From Alphaproteobacteria bacterium (GTDB lineage: Bacteria; Pseudomonadota; Alphaproteobacteria; CAAHEQ01; UBA3637): a DNA stretch of 36,786 bases. Positions within the stretch are counted from its first letter, which is position 1, and every line of letters begins with the position of its first letter. The stretch spans positions 1 to 36,786 of the forward strand of contig JAZUQR010000024.1 in assembly GCA_045605805.1 (NCBI GenBank). The letters are read 5' to 3'. The position numbers and the translations under genes are program-made. Shown here piece by piece: positions 10,132 to 21,314 of the stretch. The notes beneath the pieces are model-generated. The model was not told the DNA's origin, searched no databases, and was given only the letters and a program-made list of their open reading frames with translations.

Positions 10132-12173
10132 GACCTAGCTTATTAAATCCATTATTTGCCAATGTTGATTCGTTCAAAGGAATTGGACCCAAACTTTCTT
10201 TGTGGATTCACAAACTTTGTGGTGATAAAGTGGTGGATGTTTTGTGGCATTTCCCTTCGGGAGTGAAGCTGCGTCCGATTTTGGACAAAGTGCCGTTTCA
10301 GCCGACTTTGGGAACAATTCAAGTGGCGGTGACGGCCCATCAAATCTCCAAAATGCGTCGCAAACCTTGTGTGGTTTTTGGCAACAGTGCTTTGGGGGAG
10401 GTGCAGCTTGTATTTTTTAATTATCACGCTTCTTTTTTGAATCAAAAAATGGCGGTTGGACAATCGGTGTGGGTGTCTGGTGTGATGGTGTATGAAAACA
10501 GCTTTATCAAGGTTGTGCATCCAGATTATATTGAAACAGATATTTCTAAAATCCCACAATTTGAAGCAGTTTATCCCTTAAAGGCAGGGGCAAATGGAAA
10601 GGTGGTGCGCAAATTGATTGAACGCATTTTGCCCACTTTGCCCTCATTGCCGGAAGAAATTGATGATTCTTTGTTGAATAAGCGGCATTGGCCAACTTGG
10701 AAACAGGCTGTTGAATTATTACATTGTCCTAAAACGCCCGAAGATTTATTGCCCTGTGTGCCGGCAAGGGAACGGTTAGCCTATGACGAATTGTTGGCGA
10801 ATCAGCTGATGTTGCATCTTGTGCGTCGGCAAAATAAAAAACAGGCCGGAAAAGTATTGCCCATACAAAATCAATTAAACCTGAATTTGCCTTTTGAATT
10901 GACACAGGCGCAAAAACAGTGTTTGAAAGAGATTCGGGATGATTTGGCTTCTTGTGACAGGATGGTTCGCTTATTACAAGGGGATGTTGGGTCTGGCAAG
11001 ACAATTGTTGCTTTATTGTCGGCACTACAAGCTATTGAAAACGGGGCGCAAGTGGCGTTGTTGGCTCCCACAGATATTTTGGCCCATCAACACTTTGACA
11101 AAATAAAATCCTTTTGTCGGGAATTGCCGATTGAAGTGGGGCTTTTAACAGCCCGTGAAAAGGGCAAAAAACGGCAAGAGATTTTGGAAAGATTGCGCTT
11201 GGGTCGTTTGCACTTACTGATTGGAACGCATGCGCTTTTGCAAGAAGATATTGTTTTTCAAAATCTTGGGCTTGCAGTGATTGATGAACAACACCGTTTT
11301 GGTGTGAAGCAAAGGCTTGCGTTGGCCGAAAAAGAAAAGGGGGTGAACTTGCTTGTGATGACGGCAACACCTATTCCTCGCACGCTTGCTTTAACAACCT
11401 ATGGTGATATGGATGTGTCTGTTTTGGGTGAAAAGCCAGCTGGACGGCAACCCATTGAAACCCGCGTGATGCCTCTTGGAAAAATCCCAGAACTGATTCA
11501 CAAAATAAAAAGCAATCCCACTCAGGTTTATTGGGTTTGTCCGTTGGTTGAAGAATCAGAATCTTCTGATTTAATGGCGGTACAAAAACGATATGCTGAA
11601 TTATGTGCCTTTTTCCCTCAGCAAGTGGGGCTTGTTCATGGGAAGATGAAAGCAGACGCAAAAGACAAAGCTATGCAGGATTTTATTGCTGGTAAGACAA
11701 AGATTTTGGTTTCTACTACTGTGATTGAAGTGGGGGTGGATGTGCCTTCGGCCGGTTTGATGATTGTAGAGCATGCTGAACGCTTTGGCTTGGCAACATT
11801 GCATCAGCTGCGAGGGAGAGTAGGGCGTGGTCAAGAAAAAGCGGTGTGTTTATTGTTGCATGGCCGTTTGTCGGCAATTGCCAGAGAACGTTTGTCTGTG
11901 CTGCGTGAGTCGGATGATGGGTTTAAGATTGCTGAGGCTGATTTGAAATTGCGTGGTTGTGGCGAGGTTTTAGGGGTGCGCCAAAGCGGTATGCCTTTGT
12001 TCCATATTGCACAAATGCCAGAGCATGCGGATTTGTTGTTGCTTGCGAATCAAGAGGCGGGGCGGATTTTGAAAGAGGATGCTTTTTTTCAAACAACTCG
12101 TGGACAAGCGGTTAAAAATATGCTATACCTATTCCAAAAGGAAAAATGCTTGGATTTGTTGAAAGCGGGTTAG
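10128..12173 (+). CDS. recG: ATP-dependent DNA helicase RecG
   Basis: GDVGSGKT, DEQHRFG, TATPIPRT and QLRGRVGRG motifs. Confidence 0.97.
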   Translation: MRPSLLNPLFANVDSFKGIGPKLSLWIHKLCGDKVVDVLWHFPSGVKLRPILDKVPFQPTLGTIQVAVTAHQISKMRRKPCVVFGNSALGEVQLVFFNYHASFLNQKMAVGQSVWVSGVMVYENSFIKVVHPDYIETDISKIPQFEAVYPLKAGANGKVVRKLIERILPTLPSLPEEIDDSLLNKRHWPTWKQAVELLHCPKTPEDLLPCVPARERLAYDELLANQLMLHLVRRQNKKQAGKVLPIQNQLNLNLPFELTQAQKQCLKEIRDDLASCDRMVRLLQGDVGSGKTIVALLSALQAIENGAQVALLAPTDILAHQHFDKIKSFCRELPIEVGLLTAREKGKKRQEILERLRLGRLHLLIGTHALLQEDIVFQNLGLAVIDEQHRFGVKQRLALAEKEKGVNLLVMTATPIPRTLALTTYGDMDVSVLGEKPAGRQPIETRVMPLGKIPELIHKIKSNPTQVYWVCPLVEESESSDLMAVQKRYAELCAFFPQQVGLVHGKMKADAKDKAMQDFIAGKTKILVSTTVIEVGVDVPSAGLMIVEHAERFGLATLHQLRGRVGRGQEKAVCLLLHGRLSAIARERLSVLRESDDGFKIAEADLKLRGCGEVLGVRQSGMPLFHIAQMPEHADLLLLANQEAGRILKEDAFFQTTRGQAVKNMLYLFQKEKCLDLLKAG

Positions 12174-15411: not shown

Positions 15412-17151
15412 ATGAATTTGCTGAATCTGATAACCATTAAAGTGTCACGGGCTTTTGAACAGGCTGGCTTTGCCTCAGACAATGTGTTAGTGCGTGCCGC
15501 TGACAGACCAGATTTGGCGGATTATCAATCAAACGGGGCATTGGCGTTGGCTAAGTCATTGCATCAAAATCCACGAGAGGTGGCCGAAAAAATTATACAG
15601 GAATTGAAAAAAGATGATTTCTTTGCAGATGTTTCTGTGGCGGGCCCCGGTTTTATCAATATGAAAATTAAAGATGAAGAATTGGTGCGCTTATCGGGTG
15701 AAATCCTGACTGAGGCAAAGGCGGGTTTTGAGCGAAAAGAAAATCCAAAAACTGTTGTGCTAGATTATTGTGGGCCCAATGTTGGCAAGGTTTTGCATGT
15801 GGGGCATTTGCGTTCTGGCAACATTGGTGATGCGGTGCGCCGTATTATGCAGTTTGCTGGTGACAAGACGATTGGTGATGCCCATTTGGGCGATTGGGGG
15901 CGGCCTATGGGGTTGGTTTTAACAGAATTACAGCATCGTTGGCCGGATATGCCTTATTTTCAGCCAAATTATTCGGGCGATGAAGGGTACATCATTCCTT
16001 TTTCTTTGGCAGATGTGACTGAGGCTTATCCGATTGCTTCGGCCAAAGCAAAGGAAGACGAAGCCTATATGAATCAGGCCAAAAACTATACTCGTGAGTT
16101 GCAACAAGGCAATAAAGGCTTGCGTGATTTGTGGGAAAAGTTTGTGGCTTTAACAAAGGCGGATGCCCAAGGATTGATGGAAAACTTGAATGTTTATTTG
16201 GATTTATGGTGGGGCGAAAGTACGGTCAATAATCGGTGTAATGAGATGATTGAACGCCTTAAAAAATCGGGCGATATGGTGTTGGATGACGGGGCTTGGA
16301 TTGTGCGATTGGATGAAAAAACACCTCCGGCTATTTTGGTGAATTCGGCCGGCGCAACCATGTATGCCGCTTCGGATTTGGCCACGATAGAGGCTCGTAT
16401 GGATGCGTTTAAGCCAGATGTGATGATGTATTTTACAGATGCCCGTCAATCATTGCATTTTGATCAGATTTTTAAGGTTGCCAGAAAAATAGGGATTGTG
16501 CCTGAAACCGTTTGTATGGAATATCAAGGCTTTGGTTCGGTGAATGGGGAAGATAACAAGCCTTATAAAACGCGTGACGGGGGTGTGCCGACTTTGCGTT
16601 CTATTATTGATTCGGCTGTGGCAAAGGCTCGTTCCAAAATGGAAAATGGTGATATGGGGCGGGATTTATCGGATGCCGAAAAAGATGAGATTTCTCAAAT
16701 TGTTGGTGTGGCCGCTTTGAAGTTTATGGATTTGATGAACGACAAAGTGAAAAACTATGTCTTTGATGAAGAACGGATGATTAGTACAGAGGGTAAGACA
16801 GGGCCGTATTTGCTGTATGCAATGGTGCGGATGAAGTCTGTTTTGGAAAAAATTGGTTTGCCCCAAAATGACACAATTCAGTTGTCAACACCGGTGGAAA
16901 GAAAGTTGTTGCTGAACCTATATACTTTTCCAGAAAATGTTCAAATTGCCTATGACAATCGGGCACCTCATGTGATTGCGGATTATTTGTATAAGTTGTG
17001 TCAAGATTTCAATTTATTCTATCACGATTGCCCAATGAAAGAGGCTGAGGCTGAGATTAAAAACAGTCGTTTGAACTTGGTTCAATATACCTTGAAAGTG
17101 GCCTTATTATGCGCAGATATGTTGGGCCTTAAAGTGCCGGACAAGATGTAG
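15412..17151 (+). CDS. argS: Arginine--tRNA ligase
   Basis: PNVGKVLHVGHLRS, GDWG, YKTRDG, G.TGPYL.Y motifs and terminal Met; start after AAGGAG RBS. Confidence 0.96.
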   Translation: MNLLNLITIKVSRAFEQAGFASDNVLVRAADRPDLADYQSNGALALAKSLHQNPREVAEKIIQELKKDDFFADVSVAGPGFINMKIKDEELVRLSGEILTEAKAGFERKENPKTVVLDYCGPNVGKVLHVGHLRSGNIGDAVRRIMQFAGDKTIGDAHLGDWGRPMGLVLTELQHRWPDMPYFQPNYSGDEGYIIPFSLADVTEAYPIASAKAKEDEAYMNQAKNYTRELQQGNKGLRDLWEKFVALTKADAQGLMENLNVYLDLWWGESTVNNRCNEMIERLKKSGDMVLDDGAWIVRLDEKTPPAILVNSAGATMYAASDLATIEARMDAFKPDVMMYFTDARQSLHFDQIFKVARKIGIVPETVCMEYQGFGSVNGEDNKPYKTRDGGVPTLRSIIDSAVAKARSKMENGDMGRDLSDAEKDEISQIVGVAALKFMDLMNDKVKNYVFDEERMISTEGKTGPYLLYAMVRMKSVLEKIGLPQNDTIQLSTPVERKLLLNLYTFPENVQIAYDNRAPHVIADYLYKLCQDFNLFYHDCPMKEAEAEIKNSRLNLVQYTLKVALLCADMLGLKVPDKM

Positions 17152-17611
17152 GTTCGCTTGGCGGTTGTATCAGGTGGATGACTTGACATTTTTTTTGAAG
17201 GGCGTACTGTAAACTGCGGTATGCCCCTCCGAAAGAATAGGGGATATAGCCAATTATGAATTGACTGCGGCTGATGACCCATTCGTTGCGTTTGATGATT
17301 TTGAAACGGAATGGGATTTTGTTTAATTCCATGGGATAGAGAAAACTTGAAAAAGCAATCTGTGTGTTATGCAAATCATTTTCATATGACAAGACATAAC
17401 AGATATTCAAATGATATTGTGGAAAGTCGTGTTTGAATTGCATGGCAATTTGGCTTGACACGATTTCAAAATTGCCGTTATTTCCCACATAAAATGTATT
17501 GACTTTATGTTTTTCTACCAATTCTGTCATAATTTGTCGGATACGGTTGCTCAATTCGTTTTTTGATAGCAACAGTTCATGGTGACCGATAAAAGCACAG
17601 GATTTTCTCAT
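17129..17611 (-). CDS. SLOG-superfamily protein (YspA/DUF1273-like)
   Basis: CAFIGH N-terminus, G..G.FE, RNEWVI..S and GGAY..L.YA motifs; GAAGGA RBS; overlaps the argS 3' end convergently by 23 nt. Confidence 0.75.
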   Translation of the reverse strand: MRKSCAFIGHHELLLSKNELSNRIRQIMTELVEKHKVNTFYVGNNGNFEIVSSQIAMQFKHDFPQYHLNICYVLSYENDLHNTQIAFSSFLYPMELNKIPFRFKIIKRNEWVISRSQFIIGYIPYSFGGAYRSLQYALQKKCQVIHLIQPPSEPTSCPAL

Positions 17612-17636
17612 TTGATTTTATTTCCTTCAAGTCTTA

Positions 17637-17667
17637 AAAGAGAAAACCCACTTCTCAAAAAGTGGGT
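17637..17667 (-). terminator. Intrinsic terminator ending RNA-B
   Basis: ACCCACTTT-TTGA-GAAGTGGGT followed by TTTCTCTTTT. Confidence 0.8.
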
Positions 17668-17865
17668 GGATGTTAGAAACTATTCACATCAAGCAAGATA
17701 GTCCTGCCTATTCAGGCAAAAACCCTATTCGGCAGGCATCCACCCCTATAACAGGTAGATGCCCGACAAAGAAAATAATACACCTTTCGTACGAAAGGAT
17801 ATAAAATTCGTTTGCCCTTGATGTGAAAAGGTTTCTACACCCTTTGTTTGGGTGGGCCCCCAAAC
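17640..17865 (-). ncRNA. Candidate structured RNA 'B' (~225 nt), family unrecognised
   Basis: Own promoter; 5' hairpin GTTTGGG/CCCAAAC; closing stem 17817-17842 pairs with 17668-17693; three internal hairpins; terminator. Confidence 0.65.
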
Positions 17866-17871
17866 AAAAAG

Positions 17872-17900
17872 AGTATAGCAAATCAAAAAATGAAATGCAA
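17872..17900 (-). promoter_or_regulatory. sigma70 promoter for RNA-B
   Basis: TTGCAT-17 nt-TATACT with an extended -10 TG. Confidence 0.7.
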
Positions 17901-17940
17901 TAAAAAAAACGGAAGCCGAATTTTCTCCTTTGTTAAAAAT

Positions 17941-17965
17941 TAAAACCACCTGAAAATCAGGTGGT
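17941..17965 (-). terminator. Intrinsic terminator ending RNA-A
   Basis: ACCACCTGA-TTT-TCAGGTGGT followed by TTTAATTTTT. Confidence 0.8.
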
Positions 17966-18220
17966 CGGAGAGTTCGTAAATCAAAACATAATGCAAATGA
18001 TCCCTGTGGTCTTTAAGATTACGCCCCCGAAAGGGCGCAACCCTTGAACATACACCACAAGCTCCCCGACCATAAGTCAAGGGTGGAGTTGAAATGGGTA
18101 TTTACTTACAAGAAGAAAACACACCATTTCGGGTAGGGTGTTCAAACTACCCCATTATGTTTGAGCTTACGAGGCTCCGATACCTTATTCAGGCACTGTG
18201 GACAAGGTTTCGCCTTATCC
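17942..18220 (-). ncRNA. Candidate structured RNA 'A' (~280 nt), family unrecognised
   Basis: Own promoter; two 5' hairpins; closing stem 18153-18180 pairs with 17965-17993; four internal arms; potential pseudoknot; G-U pairs form only on the - strand. Confidence 0.7.
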
Positions 18221-18227
18221 GTTTCTT

Positions 18228-18256
18228 ATTTTATGATATCTTATTTTGTTTGTCAA
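18228..18256 (-). promoter_or_regulatory. sigma70 promoter for RNA-A
   Basis: TTGACA-17 nt-TAAAAT. Confidence 0.8.
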
Positions 18257-18280
18257 GCAATAATTTATAAAATAACCTTC

Positions 18281-18318
18281 AAAAAAAAACGGAAGCCGTG
18301 TGACTTCCGTTTTCTTTT
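18281..18318 (-). terminator. rpsA intrinsic terminator
   Basis: AAAACGGAAGTC-ACAC-GGCTTCCG followed by T9. Confidence 0.9.
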
Positions 18319-18331
18319 AAGACAGGCAGAT

Positions 18332-20038
18332 TTATTCTGCGTCTTTTTTGGCTTTCTTGGCTTTCTTTTCCAAGGCTGCGCCCAAGATATCGCCCAAAGA
18401 GGCACCTGAGCTTGTAGAGCCATATTCTTCCAAAGCACGTTTTTCATCATCAATTTCACGAGCTTTGATAGACAAGTTCACTTTGTGGGCTTTGTTATCC
18501 ACAGAAGTGATTTTGGCATCCACTTTTTCACCAATGGCAAAACGTTCTGTTTTTTGTTCGGAACGTTCTTTGGCCAAGTCTGTGCGTTTGATATAGCCTT
18601 TCACACCATTGACATCAACTTCAATGCCGTTTTCTTCAATAGCGGAGACAACAGCGGTGACCACTGCACCCTTCTTGATGCCTTCCATAGAACCGGCTGT
18701 TGGGTCTTCTGTCAATTGTTTGATGCCCAAAGAAATGCGTTCTTTTTCAACATCAATGTCCAAGATTTTGGCTGTGACAGACATACCTTTTTTATAGTCT
18801 TTGATGGCTTCTTCGCTTGCTTTATCCCAAGACAAATCAGAGCTGTGAATCATGCCGTCCAAGTCTTGTGTTAAAGACATAAAGACACCAAATTCAATTA
18901 CATTCTTGATTTCGCCTTCAACGATATCGCCTACTTTGTGTTCAGCAGCAAACTTTTCCCAAGGATTTTCTTGTAATTGTTTGATGCCCAAAGAAATGCG
19001 GCGTTTTGTTTCATCAACTTCCAAAACAACCACTTCAACTTCTTGACCCAAAGCAACAATTTTGTTTGGATGTGTGTTTTTCTTTGTCCAGCTCATTTCT
19101 GATACATGGACCAAGCCTTCAACGCCATCGCCTAAATCAACAAAGGCACCGTAATCTGTGAGGTTGCTGATTTTTCCTGTCAATTTATCGCCCACATGGA
19201 ATTTGTCTTGAACACCAGCCCAAGGATCGGCTTCCATTTGTTTCAAGCCCAAAGAAATGCGGCCGGTTTCTTGGTTGAATTTGATAATTTGGACTTTAAT
19301 TGTTTGTCCAATTGTCAAGATTTCTTGCGGGTTGTTGATGCGCTTCCAGCTCATATCTGTGACATGCAACAAGCCGTCTAATCCACCCAAATCAATGAAT
19401 GCACCATAATCTGTGACATTTTTAACGGTACCTTCAACCACTTGACCTTCGGACATAGTTTTGATGATTTCAGATGTTTGTTCTGCTCTGGCTTCTTCCA
19501 AAACAGCACGACGAGAGACAACAATGTTGCCACGTGCTTTATCCATTTTCAAAATAGCAAATGGTTGTTCAACGCCCATCAATGGGGAAATATCACGAAT
19601 TGGACGAATGTCAATTTGGCTGCCAGGTAAGAAGGCTGTTGCGCCTTTCAAATCAACCGTAAAGCCACCTTTGACACGGCCAAAGATTGTACCGTTCACA
19701 TGTTCGCCTTTTGTCATGGCAACTTCCAAATCGCCCCATGCTTCTTCACGACGAGCTTTTTCACGAGACAAAACGGCATTGCCTTCACGATCTTCATAAC
19801 GTTCAATGAAGACTTCAACCACATCACCCACATTTACAGCTTGAACGCCAAATTCGGAAAGAGGGATGCGACCTTCGGATTTTAAGCCCACATCAACGAT
19901 AACTTCGTCATCATCAATGCGTGTCACTGTTCCAGAAACGGTTTTGCCTTGTAAAGCAGAGCCTGTTCCCATGTATTCATCTAATAATGCACCAAAATCT
20001 TCTGTCAATTCCGGTGTGTTTTGTTTTTTATTTGTCAT
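18332..20038 (-). CDS. rpsA: 30S ribosomal protein S1
   Basis: DVGLKSEG and repeated S1 domains (YGAF.DL, GL.HV..MSW, RISLG.KQ). Confidence 0.98.
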   Translation of the reverse strand: MTNKKQNTPELTEDFGALLDEYMGTGSALQGKTVSGTVTRIDDDEVIVDVGLKSEGRIPLSEFGVQAVNVGDVVEVFIERYEDREGNAVLSREKARREEAWGDLEVAMTKGEHVNGTIFGRVKGGFTVDLKGATAFLPGSQIDIRPIRDISPLMGVEQPFAILKMDKARGNIVVSRRAVLEEARAEQTSEIIKTMSEGQVVEGTVKNVTDYGAFIDLGGLDGLLHVTDMSWKRINNPQEILTIGQTIKVQIIKFNQETGRISLGLKQMEADPWAGVQDKFHVGDKLTGKISNLTDYGAFVDLGDGVEGLVHVSEMSWTKKNTHPNKIVALGQEVEVVVLEVDETKRRISLGIKQLQENPWEKFAAEHKVGDIVEGEIKNVIEFGVFMSLTQDLDGMIHSSDLSWDKASEEAIKDYKKGMSVTAKILDIDVEKERISLGIKQLTEDPTAGSMEGIKKGAVVTAVVSAIEENGIEVDVNGVKGYIKRTDLAKERSEQKTERFAIGEKVDAKITSVDNKAHKVNLSIKAREIDDEKRALEEYGSTSSGASLGDILGAALEKKAKKAKKDAE

Positions 20039-20203: not shown

Positions 20204-20725
20204 TTACAAAATATCAGAACCGCATAAGGCATTTAAGTCAACGGCTTTGCCGCTTAAACGCATGGTGACATCTTCAACGCTTCCGTCTTCCATTTGTTCG
20301 TTTCTTACGGTGAAGTCAATATCAGAAACGCCATTCATTTGAATCATGGTTGTCAACAGTTTTCGGCACATGCTACCCTTGATGCGCTCTCCGTTTTTAT
20401 CGGCTACTTCGGCCACAAATTCGGTGCCAGTGAACGCACGGTCTTCATCCCGTGGGGCCTTAAAGGTAATCACATAGTTTTGTGTTTTGCCACGATATTT
20501 CCTTAAAAACTCATCCATTTCATCTGCTGATTGCAATTTTGTGGAATGTAATGCAGCCAAAATTTGAATGCTGTTCAAATTGATTTGGTGGATGATGCTG
20601 TTGATTTCGTTTTTATTCATGGCCCGCTTAAAACCGATGACGCCTCCAATTGATAATAGACCGATAATAGCCAAAACAGCCAAGATTTCAATGGCTGAAC
20701 GCCCAGATTCTGTTGAATTTTTCAT
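20204..20725 (-). CDS. Prepilin-like protein (class III signal peptide)
   Basis: MKNSTESG|RSAIEILAVLAIIGLLSIGG with Gly-1, Glu+5 and a hydrophobic helix; AAGGAG RBS before ATG 20725. Confidence 0.8.
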   Translation of the reverse strand: MKNSTESGRSAIEILAVLAIIGLLSIGGVIGFKRAMNKNEINSIIHQINLNSIQILAALHSTKLQSADEMDEFLRKYRGKTQNYVITFKAPRDEDRAFTGTEFVAEVADKNGERIKGSMCRKLLTTMIQMNGVSDIDFTVRNEQMEDGSVEDVTMRLSGKAVDLNALCGSDIL

Positions 20726-20783
20726 TTTCTCCTCCTTATATAGATAGAAAAAGGATAGCGTGTTTTTTTTGAAAATGCAAGAT

Positions 20784-21314
20784 TTATTTTGTTGGTTTGC
20801 AACCGCAATAGGTTTGACGATAGAGTTGATGCATTTTGGCAAGGCGTTCTGATTTTTCCAAGCCCCCATTTTTACGCCAATTGGTTGTATCGTAGGGTAA
20901 ACCTGTTTCCTGTTCCACCTTTTTACCGGCTTGACAAACTTGATTAAAATCTTTGAATCTTGAAATGCCTAACACAGATGTCATGCGGGTAAAGCCATTT
21001 TGTTTGGCATAGTCGGCACATACTTTCAACCGCAGATAGAAGCACACATCACAGCGTTTGCCTTTTTCTGGTTCGTTCAGTAAATCTTTTGTGGCTTTAT
21101 CCCACATATCCGTTAAATAATCGCCTTCAATAAATGGAATATGGTAAAAATTGCAAATGCGTTTATTTTCTTCCAAACGGCGTTGATATTCCGATTCCGG
21201 TTTGATGTTTGGATTAAAAAACATAACGGCAAAATCTTGTTTTTTTTCGGCCAAATCAGCTATTACGCCCACAGAACAGGGTGCGCAACATGAAACCAGC
21301 AATAACTTATCCAT
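20784..21314 (-). CDS. queH: Epoxyqueuosine reductase QueH (DUF208)
   Basis: CCAPCS, NPNI.P..EY..R, E.G.RC..C...RL and YRQ.YCGC motifs. Confidence 0.92.
   Translation of the reverse strand: MDKLLLVSCCAPCSVGVIADLAEKKQDFAVMFFNPNIKPESEYQRRLEENKRICNFYHIPFIEGDYLTDMWDKATKDLLNEPEKGKRCDVCFYLRLKVCADYAKQNGFTRMTSVLGISRFKDFNQVCQAGKKVEQETGLPYDTTNWRKNGGLEKSERLAKMHQLYRQTYCGCKPTK

Follow-up and report, generated by a model that had tools for sequence, protein, structure and literature searches.

The window analysed here is the whole stretch of 36,786 nucleotides (nt) of contig JAZUQR010000024.1, from an alphaproteobacterial genome. On its − strand, a gap of 720 nt separates the end of rpsA (20038-18332; six S1 domains) from the start, at 17611, of an open reading frame (ORF) for a 160-amino-acid (aa) YpsA-like SLOG protein, and this gap holds two large structured RNAs, unit 1 (transcribed region ~18222 to 17940) and unit 2 (~17866 to 17640). 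It is probable, in our view, that each unit is one copy of a family not described before, and that both families consist of cis-acting conditional attenuator leaders. This reading is carried by family membership, a common architecture, covariation, alternative pairings, two kinds of expression platform and linkage to the genes downstream, all of them observed in the sequences compared. The original prediction had described the two − strand units, each with its own terminator and a promoter with a spacing of 17 base pairs, and every element it listed is present; it went on to propose that the RNAs and the SLOG gene form an accessory module, in which the RNAs act in trans or as attenuator leaders, and that part of it has to be revised.

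Copies of both units occur in cassettes of constant order: promoter, 5′ hairpin, structured core, terminator or a hairpin that masks the Shine–Dalgarno (SD) sequence, ribosome-binding site (RBS) and ATG. Promoter-like sites precede 33 of 34 unit-2 copies, at the place equivalent to that in the window, and 25 of 27 unit-1 copies, as TTGNNN-N16-18-TANNNT. A hairpin followed by at least five T in nine nt is present in 25/34 and 22/27 copies, respectively. From the end of this hairpin to the start codon, the median distance is 29.5 nt in unit-2 and 25.5 nt in unit-1 copies, which leaves no room for a separate promoter. The organisation is that of an attenuating leader, with promoter, leader, intrinsic terminator and a gene that has no promoter of its own.

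Two families of structured leaders

The units are far from unique to this locus. A BLAST search with the gap found matches in 27 of 61 relatives, several per genome, and a second, partial unit-2 copy in the window's own genome (contig C8), followed by a paralogue of the 160-aa protein. Profile searches with nhmmer over 66 loci yielded 28 unit-1 and 34 unit-2 copies. Covariance models, one per RNA family and built on the conserved 3′ domains, recovered six unit-2 copies and one unit-1 copy in the window's genome. Across the bacterial family to which the window belongs, the unit-2 type was matched in 73 of 80 genomes (662 matches) and the unit-1 type in 53 (104 matches). Some genomes of 1.1-1.3 Mb hold 38-50 unit-2 matches (48 in G013, 50 in G100), and G013 has 18 unit-1-type matches as well. 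In a sample of the class (151 genomes, one per family), the unit-1 type appeared in 21 genomes and the unit-2 type in 11; the former count includes one unpublished genome (G119), without which it is 20/150. The unit-1 model matched seven genomes in a sample of the phylum (151 genomes), all of them Alphaproteobacteria. Its class-level matches include complete genomes of 1.9-4.3 Mb, which may come from cultured strains. All these genome counts describe spread and are not statistics, since kin are non-independent.

As had been supposed, neither RNA belongs to a known family. We searched the 4227 models of Rfam 15 with the gathering threshold of each family as the criterion, and the only match in the whole window was a transfer RNA (tRNA) at 2047-2120. 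Relaxing the threshold to E ≤ 10 for the region 17550-18400 yielded 26 weak matches, none of which came near gathering (24.1 vs 47 bits for the best). Twenty loci with family members gave only a tRNA at gathering score, and 13 GC-rich member loci gave no match at E ≤ 0.01. T-box (RF00230), whose model spans Stem I with the specifier loop and the T-box antiterminator sequence, was matched neither in the region of the window at E ≤ 10 nor in the 20 member loci at gathering score, and neither of the cyclic di-GMP (c-di-GMP) riboswitches, c-di-GMP-I (RF01051) and c-di-GMP-II (RF01786), was matched in the window or in member loci. We found no literature on these motifs; the supplementary tables of large-scale motif screens may list them. 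The main text of a study on thousands of candidate structured RNAs from human microbiomes (PMC8040213) contains none of our search terms, and its supplementary tables could list the motifs.

Both families are built on the same layout: P0, the hairpin at the 5′ end; P1, a small hairpin that forms a pseudoknot (PK) between its loop and the 3′ tail; a closing stem (CS) that spans a long range; variable hairpins; the pairing R1:R2; a hairpin Ph; the 4-bp helix b:b′, on either side of the 3′ strand of CS; the 3′ strand of PK; R3; and the terminator (Table 1). An extra GNRA-type hairpin after P0 is found in unit 1 only. The earlier observation that this common layout goes with unrelated sequence stands: the unit-2 model matched nothing in 20 unit-1 loci (E ≤ 10, default filters), which gives no sign of a common descent of the two families. 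The 10-mer noticed in both units is indeed an exact match at its two sites (repeat search). Only two elements were matched by both covariance models, G030:C2:~224-319 (71.8 bits with the unit-2 model, 33.7 with the unit-1 model) and G054:C3:~2167-2266 (39.2 and 30.6), and these may be intermediates between the families.

Folding is far beyond what composition would give. Compared with 200 dinucleotide shuffles per unit, the − strand reached a minimum free energy (MFE) of -118.7 kcal/mol for unit 1 (z -8.98) and -101.6 kcal/mol for unit 2 (z -9.71), and in neither case did any of the 200 shuffles fold as well, which was the outcome anticipated for this control. The + strand had z values of -5.73 and -5.96. 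In MAFFT alignments, the 3′ domains had 95.5% (unit 2) and 95.7% (unit 1) of their cells paired, with 16/23 and 13/26 pairs changed on both sides; the full unit 2, with PK and P1, had 93.0% (26/38 pairs changed on both sides), and the 5′ part of unit 1, with PK, 93.4% (10/20). None of 500 column shuffles reached the observed percentage of pairing or the covariation score in any of the four alignments, and sliding the 3′ partner by 1-3 columns lowered pairing to 23-56% of cells.

In divergent copies, the MAFFT alignment puts R1 and the closing stem in the wrong place, and those helices were tested alignment-free, by the duplex energies of cognate and non-cognate strands. Cognate duplexes were better for P0, Ph, PK and CS. 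For the loop–tail pairing, the values were -7.9 vs -2.5 kcal/mol in unit 2 and -5.6 vs -1.6 in unit 1; for the closing stem, -12.2 vs -3.4 and -10.5 vs -2.7. The P1 loop of unit 2, UGUAGAAAC, pairs with the tail UUUCUAA at 17673-17679 (6/7 pairs changed on both sides), and that of unit 1, UCGUAA, is complementary to UUACGA at 17974-17979 (90.7% paired, with GC/AU and AU/UA/CG swaps). Ph is equally well supported, with 6/6 outer pairs changed on both sides and 98.4% pairing in unit 2, and 8/8 outer and 3/4 distal pairs changed in unit 1. Helix b:b′ is 97.7% paired in unit 2 (3/4 pairs changed on both sides) and 100% in unit 1 (2/4), and the two helix segments of the unit-1 hairpin Pg are 98.1% and 95.4% paired. 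In the four helix sets, G·U pairs outnumber A·C cells by 106/22, 43/14, 77/4 and 86/7. This excess indicates that selection acts on RNA of the gene's strand and speaks against DNA inverted repeats, in line with the earlier proposal that the G-U pairs mark the − strand as the pairing strand. Covariation supports the helices, including the loop-to-3′-tail pairing, and is weaker in R1:R2 of unit 2 and in R2:R3 of unit 1.

Alternative pairings and expression platforms

The segment R2 is SD-like and complementary to both R1 and R3; in unit 2, its core GGGUGGAUG can pair with R1 upstream or with R3 downstream. R2:R3 is 100% paired in unit 2 (3/9 pairs changed on both sides) and 99.6% paired across 26 distinct copies of unit 1. 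R3 in turn overlaps the 5′ strand of the terminator by 3-4 nt in both units (4 nt in unit 2, where 5/8 terminator pairs changed on both sides; the overlap in unit 1 is with that unit's own terminator). An alternative R2:R3 pairing that overlaps the terminator stem, as expected of an attenuator, is present in both families. The RNAalifold consensus of unit 2 contains R2:R3, Ph and b:b′ as a three-way junction. Single-sequence MFE folds contain R1:R2, the closing stem and the terminator in 26/32 unit-2 copies, and R2 pairs upstream with R1 in 23/26 unit-1 copies. R1, R2 and R3 change together in divergent unit-2 copies, a three-way co-variation. The GGUUGGAAGG-type R2 pairs with its own R1 at -12.1 and with its own R3 at -16.3 kcal/mol, compared with about -5 to -11 for main-type partners, and the main-type R2 has the reverse preference, its own partners being favoured over those of the GGUUGGAAGG type.

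A second kind of platform was found among the copies scored as having no U tract (n = 9 in unit 2, seven of them upstream of SLOG genes). In these SLOG-linked unit-2 copies, the SD region repeats R2, in the form GGGGUGGAU-N-AUG, and the mean R3:SD duplex of unit 2 is -9.6 kcal/mol in the copies without a U tract vs -4.3 in those of the terminator type. GC-rich relatives of unit 1 likewise have the SD-masking design. A single sensor combined with two interchangeable platforms is the pattern seen in cis-regulatory switches. No conserved leader peptide was recognised: inspected by eye, the AUGs in R2 and Ph have no conserved reading frame. As a separate observation, in four SLOG-linked unit-2 copies (L002, L018, L023, L044) the distal part of Ph holds a further R1/R3-like copy, AUCCACCCC, with which R2 is paired in their MFE folds; this subfamily may have a four-way competition.

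In our proposal, each cassette would begin with a sigma-70 promoter and P0, continue with a sensor domain (~150-220 nt) and an expression platform, and end with the RBS and its gene. The sensor would consist of P1 with its loop–tail pairing, the long-range closing stem, Ph with its invariant internal loops and the R1/R2/R3 triplet. In the OFF state, presumably the default, R1:R2 would be paired and R3 would be free to form the intrinsic terminator with a segment R4 or, in copies without a U tract, to mask an SD that copies R2. In the ON state, R2:R3 would close the three-way junction with Ph and b:b′, and this would remove half of the terminator stem or free the SD. For the flip to occur, a trigger would have to bind to the junction and loops that are conserved. 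Switching in cells, its direction and its trigger are what we infer from these pairings. The two platform types and the conserved junction nucleotides would be indirect signs of a riboswitch-like build.

As to the trigger, a signal that diffuses in the cell, for instance a second messenger of the nucleotide type, is a possibility that we put forward tentatively, and with the same reserve we suggest a protein or RNA factor; a small-molecule and a macromolecular trigger seem about equally likely. Since the window's genome encodes two GGDEF proteins and one RelA/SpoT, c-di-GMP and guanosine tetraphosphate (ppGpp) are possible messengers. CsrA had no match in this genome, which is 98.9% complete.

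Several observations weigh against conditional attenuation. In a nested folding model, R2:R3 can be forced only at a price of +0.4 to +28.4 kcal/mol for unit-2 copies and +4.8 to +21.7 for unit-1 copies, and no full-length MFE fold contains this pairing. The nested model is blind to the crossing PK and CS pairings, so the cost argues only that the ON state needs help; we take it as a sign that this state needs a stabilising partner. The variation of R1:R2 in unit 2 is mostly one-sided, from G·U to G-C, and R2:R3 of unit 1 has no double changes, so that the alternative pairing of unit 1 rests on conservation and complementarity. The regulon is heterogeneous and has no obvious link to any single metabolite. 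Copies within a genus are kin, and some of the loci coincide (L073/L074, L046/L044). The unit 1 of the window, which has no gene, scores 101.4 bits, close to the ~105 of its gene-linked relatives; its persistence may reflect a recent gene loss or a role in trans. Lastly, expression is hinted at by a single shallow contig. Only one RNA run is among the 20 sequencing runs listed, and 0.07 of the sampled words of the region occur in it. A metatranscriptome contig of 243 nt covers 17589-17831, that is, the body of unit 2, its terminator and the start of the SLOG gene, and a 35-nt piece from the same run lies on unit 1. At a depth of 3, and with DNA carry-over possible, the 243-nt contig is a weak hint of read-through, and nothing can be concluded from the stretches that the run leaves uncovered.

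Known systems resemble these leaders in part. Like T-box elements, they are multi-copy cis leaders of ~200-300 nt in which an antiterminator sequence competes with an intrinsic terminator, and lineage-specific T-box variants mask the SD instead of terminating. Unlike them, they pair a loop with the tail as a pseudoknot and have a closing stem as well as the R1/R2/R3 triplet, their regulon comprises surface proteins, regulators and SLOG rather than aminoacyl-tRNA synthetase or amino-acid genes, and they were found in the Alphaproteobacteria searched and not in the Firmicutes searched. The c-di-GMP-I and -II riboswitches (GEMM) are two structurally unrelated classes that control pili, surface and regulator genes and reach many copies in some genomes. 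The present families are similarly two unrelated classes in front of similar genes, in a host genome with two GGDEF proteins, but their sensor domain is about twice as large. With trp-type 1:2/2:3/3:4 attenuators they have in common that three overlapping alternative pairings would decide terminator formation, whereas they have no conserved leader peptide and their competing segments lie within a large covarying sensor domain. OLE, GOLLD, ROOL, raiA and HEARO are also large structured RNAs with their own promoter and terminator, known from comparative genomics; the RNAs described here, which match none of these Rfam families, differ in being 5′ leaders that carry expression platforms and are followed after 25-30 nt by a gene.

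Downstream genes, SLOG linkage and rival explanations

The genes after the 34 unit-2 copies code for YpsA-like SLOG proteins (12), a 59-aa lipoprotein (six), other lipoproteins (two), pilin-like proteins (seven, and three cut genes with the same N-terminus), a cysteine-rich secreted protein (one) and others (three). Those after the 28 unit-1 copies code for pilin-like proteins (10), a 198-aa outer-membrane beta-barrel (three; PF13505, 3.6e-20), lipoprotein-like proteins (three), cysteine-rich secreted proteins (three) and others (seven), and two copies, including that of the window, have none. These two sets were chosen by similarity to the window, and SLOG-linked copies are favoured in them; among 18 further copies found by the models in G013, at least seven precede pilin-like genes and one precedes a SLOG gene. 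We call pilin-like any protein with a GRSMVEMLGVLA-type N-terminus, a label that Pfam supports solely by one weak match to N_methyl, which at E 0.0085 falls below the cut-off. In distant Alphaproteobacteria, leaders of the unit-1 type stand before seven paralogous XRE (HTH_3) regulator genes in one genome and also before genes for a RovC_DNA-bd protein, lipoproteins and membrane proteins. Pilin-like, cysteine-rich secreted, lipoprotein and SLOG genes occur downstream of both families.

Two side observations concern the pilin-like genes. G013 and the other genomes of ~1.1 Mb with 38-50 matches have a large expansion of them (250-475 aa), most with a leader of their own (in G013, loci L016, L042, L047, L049, L051, L054 and L161-L178). 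The pilin-like protein of L038 has weak teneurin-like EGF matches, one of them just above the Pfam cut-off, and a Hint match below it.

The window's 160-aa protein itself matched no Pfam family, even at E ≤ 10, so that the SLOG label given to it earlier applies to its family and its predicted fold rather than to its own sequence. Among its aligned relatives, 23/31 match PF06908 (YpsA) at E ≤ 0.001 (best 2e-08), and the family profile matches Bacillus subtilis YpsA (2nx2) at E 0.0011. Its AlphaFold2 model (predicted local distance difference test, pLDDT, 92.8; predicted template-modelling score, pTM, 0.87) has 2nx2 as the best Foldseek match (template-modelling score, TM, 0.72; 11% identity), and further matches are ShosA, DprA, the Moco carrier protein, LOG-like proteins and the SLOG domain of ThsA. 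As modelled, it would have the SLOG Rossmann-like fold in common with YpsA/DUF1273 (PF06908), from which it differs as part of a shorter and divergent branch that occurs in Alphaproteobacteria of the gut and in Firmicutes of the Oscillospirales type.

A scan for this SLOG family, one genome per species, returned 52 loci, half of them in Alpha- or other proteobacterial metagenome-assembled genomes from gut and rumen and half in Firmicutes. A leader lies directly upstream in 25 of the 26 proteobacterial loci (16 unit-2, nine unit-1; L089 has none). This regular placement in alphaproteobacterial SLOG loci is what one would expect if the RNAs were independent, stable, trans-acting non-coding RNAs working together with the SLOG protein as a module, and so would be the promoter and terminator of each unit, the terminated transcripts of ~230-290 nt expected from the default fold, the window's unit 1, intact yet without a gene, and the resemblance of the SLOG fold to the nucleic-acid binder DprA (TM 0.64). 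We nevertheless hold such a module to be unlikely. The 26 Firmicutes loci have no convincing leader (L099 gave a weak partial match at its RBS and start, E 0.0092), and the unit-2 model had no match in five of five SLOG-carrying Firmicutes genomes. In the class sample, the SLOG profile is found in 2/151 genomes, compared with 11 for the unit-2 and 21 for the unit-1 type, so the RNAs occur in families without SLOG. A non-SLOG gene follows 22/34 unit-2 and 26/28 unit-1 copies, the other two unit-1 copies having no called gene, and a SLOG gene follows only 1/18 of the further G013 copies. The gene starts ~25-30 nt past the hairpin, the SD-masking variants make sense only in cis, and the tandem pair is strain-specific. 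Because the leaders are more widespread than SLOG, the latter is a frequent target in one lineage and not the defining partner: in Alphaproteobacteria, SLOG is a regular member of the regulon, not the partner of a private RNA. The co-occurrence with DUF1273-like genes that had been postulated is therefore real in Alphaproteobacteria (25/26 loci) and lacking in Firmicutes (0/26), with the RNAs commoner than SLOG. The attenuator-leader option of the original prediction fits unit 2, but a dedicated RNA–SLOG module does not agree with copies before many unrelated genes, and the same multi-copy leaders are evidence against a scaffold, guide, decoy or antitoxin acting in trans. Two narrower candidates were rejected as well. 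SLOG as a universal trans factor is ruled out by the class-sample counts. A type III toxin–antitoxin system would need short direct repeats in tandem for its antitoxin RNA, and the region 17000-18500 lacks such an array, its repeats being scattered, present in two copies each and ≤22 nt long.

Two further explanations keep the RNAs in cis or dispense with RNA altogether. The cassettes could be features of DNA, either inverton repeats or a miniature mobile element that spreads promoter cassettes, as their copy number of up to ~50 per genome might suggest, along with the preponderance of surface-protein genes of gut bacteria among the regulated genes, the promoter and RBS sequence common to whole cassettes, the identical terminators that bound cassettes within a genome and the 17-nt direct repeat around the window's unit 1. 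We regard this as highly improbable: DNA repeats would lack the strand bias present in every helix set (G·U far above A·C), folding is far better on the gene's strand, and there are many nested or crossing helices with conserved unpaired loops in place of one pair of terminal repeats. For an inverton, moreover, the promoter lies outside the long inverted repeat, and the contigs of four runs hold no strand-change joints, though rare variants may go unseen in contigs. Cassettes probably do duplicate as DNA, yet this leaves the conserved RNA structure unexplained. Alternatively, the leaders could be constitutive 5′ untranslated regions that stabilise the mRNA, lower transcription through a leaky terminator and set the level of translation while sensing no signal. 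A 5′ hairpin at +1 is a classic mRNA stabiliser, P0 has this predicted position, and folding strongly favours the default state, in which R1:R2 and the terminator form. What makes a constitutive role improbable is that neither the three-way co-variation of R1/R2/R3 nor the R2-like SD kept by copies that have no terminator is easily accounted for if the alternative pairings serve no purpose, and that unpaired junction and internal-loop nucleotides are conserved across distant families, which suggests a candidate binding site.

Conditional attenuator leaders can be given a more specific role, which we offer as rather doubtful. The two families might be two riboswitch classes for an unrecognised signal, e.g., a nucleotide-derived messenger, with an alphaproteobacterial surface-ome as their regulon and SLOG making, binding or destroying the signal as a feedback arm; the up to ~50-65 leaders per 1.1-Mb genome would stand mostly before pilin-like genes. 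In a variant of this idea, the leaders would compete for one limiting antiterminator, and few pilin-like paralogues would be on at once, a surface variation at the level of RNA. If the leaders are what we propose, two abundant, class-wide families of regulatory RNA are missing from Rfam 15, and ~4-6% of genes, most of them for exported or surface proteins, would be under their control in some ~1-Mb gut or rumen Alphaproteobacteria (an estimate from the 66 leaders of G013 and an assumed ~one gene per kb). Such a large, well-defined regulon would pose an orphan-riboswitch problem. The architecture would also be unusual in that it combines a reciprocal loop-to-tail pseudoknot with a switch whose three segments co-evolve, and the unit-1 copies in complete genomes of 1.9-4.3 Mb would open a route to experiments.

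The tandem arrangement and further observations

In the window, unit 2 would control the YpsA-like SLOG gene, and unit 1 would be an intact orphan leader that at most feeds read-through into the unit 2–SLOG cassette. Two relatives (G005, G009) have in this place rpsA, its terminator, a unit-1 cassette, the gene for the 198-aa outer-membrane barrel (OMP_b-brl) and an identical terminator again, and the RBS of unit 1 in relatives is followed by the ATG of that gene. In the window, the RBS AAAGGAGAAAATT runs directly into the 17-nt repeat that equals the 3′ half of the rpsA terminator, an exact direct repeat on either side of unit 1 (repeat search). This junction of RBS and terminator half indicates that the outer-membrane-protein gene was deleted here. 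Metagenome contigs of other strains proceed past 17921 into that gene, and one contig has the arrangement of the window. The tandem pair that had drawn attention is thus present with both of its units, while their adjacency is a strain accident that followed the loss of the gene of unit 1. An element of the rpsA 3′ untranslated region was considered and rejected, since unit 1 adjoins rpsA in the closest relatives only.

Table 1. Features mapped in the gap between rpsA and the SLOG gene of the window, in the direction of transcription
Feature	Coordinates	Strand	Basis or remark
rpsA intrinsic terminator	18279-18320	−	Terminator scan; 3′ half 18282-18298 recurs exactly at 17902-17918
Unit 1 promoter TTGACA-17-TAAAAT	18228-18256	−	11/12 consensus matches
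Unit 1 P0, 5′ hairpin at predicted transcript start	18200-18220	−	MFE fold; 4/4 counted pairs changed on both sides in the family
Unit 1 Pg hairpin, GAAUA loop, contains the shared 10-mer (18186-18195)	18180-18196	−	MFE fold
Unit 1 P1 hairpin GAGC..GCUC, loop UCGUAA	18163-18177	−	99.1% paired
Unit 1 closing stem, 5′ strand (CS5′)	18153-18162, partner 17984-17997	−	MFE fold
Unit 1 R1 CCCUUGAC, partner R2	18076-18083	−	MFE fold
Unit 1 R2 GGUCGGGGAG, SD-like, complementary to R1 and R3	18062-18071	−	Sequence and alignment
Unit 1 long hairpin Ph, invariant internal loop GUAUGUUCA / UAAAG	18002-18061	−	Alignment
Unit 1 b (AUCA), CS3′ strand, b′ (UGAU)	17980-18001	−	b:b′ brackets the CS3′ strand
Unit 1 PK 3′ strand UUACGA, then AC, then R3 CUCUCCGACC	17963-17979	−	Alignment and sequence
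Unit 1 intrinsic terminator and U tract	17934-17966 (hairpin 17966-17944)	−	Terminator scan
Unit 1 relic RBS AAAGGAGAAAATT, without start codon, abuts repeat 17902-17918	17919-17933	−	Sequence
Unit 2 promoter TTGCAT-17-TATACT	17872-17900	−	Read from sequence; not listed by promoter scan
Unit 2 P0, 5′ hairpin	17846-17865	−	MFE fold; 6/6 pairs changed on both sides
Unit 2 P1 hairpin, loop UGUAGAAAC	17828-17843	−	90.6% paired
Unit 2 closing stem, 5′ strand	17817-17827, partner 17684-17697	−	MFE fold
Unit 2 R1 GGGCAUCUACC	17754-17764	−	R1:R2 97.9% and 90.6% paired in two segments
Unit 2 R2 GGGGUGGAUGCC, SD-like, complementary to R1 and R3	17735-17746	−	Alignment
Unit 2 Ph CCUGCC..GGCAGG, GAAUA-type internal loops, contains the 10-mer (17709-17718)	17703-17736	−	Alignment
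Unit 2 b (CUAU), CS3′, b′ (AUAG), PK 3′ strand (UUUCUAA), R3 CAUCCACCC	17664-17701	−	Alignment
Unit 2 intrinsic terminator and U tract	17636-17667 (hairpin 17667-17646)	−	Terminator scan
Gene for the 160-aa YpsA-like SLOG protein	17129-17611	−	RBS GAAGGAAA at 17621-17628

Other cassettes offer observations of their own. In G005, G009 and G008, the complete terminator hairpin recurs wherever one of the successive cassettes ends, a hint that terminators serve as the sites of cassette duplication or recombination. One locus (L037, G019:C22:12534-15633) has three tandem cassettes of a unit-2 leader and a 59-aa lipoprotein gene, spaced by ~440 nt. At L069:1764-1841 (G008:C18), a unit-1-type promoter and P0 are followed by unrelated sequence (nhmmer columns 6-83 only), and this element may be a truncated or hybrid leader. 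A third, different leader stands before two pilin-like genes (G000:C3:~11750-12150, L041, and G000:C20:1-340); it has a GC-rich terminator of its own and a run of 10 G, which could allow slipped-strand phase variation.

Upstream of rpsA in the window, a 221-aa ORF (20204-20869, −) has no Pfam match at E ≤ 10 and has counterparts of 62-64% identity in G005 and G009. A palindromic repeat of the GTCATTGCGAG...CTCGCAATGAC type lies between leader and gene at L045:~500-590 and also inside the N-terminal coding regions of L047, L049, L051 and L054, and a related repeat, of the GGAATGACGG type, is found upstream of the cassettes in G306 (L151-L157).

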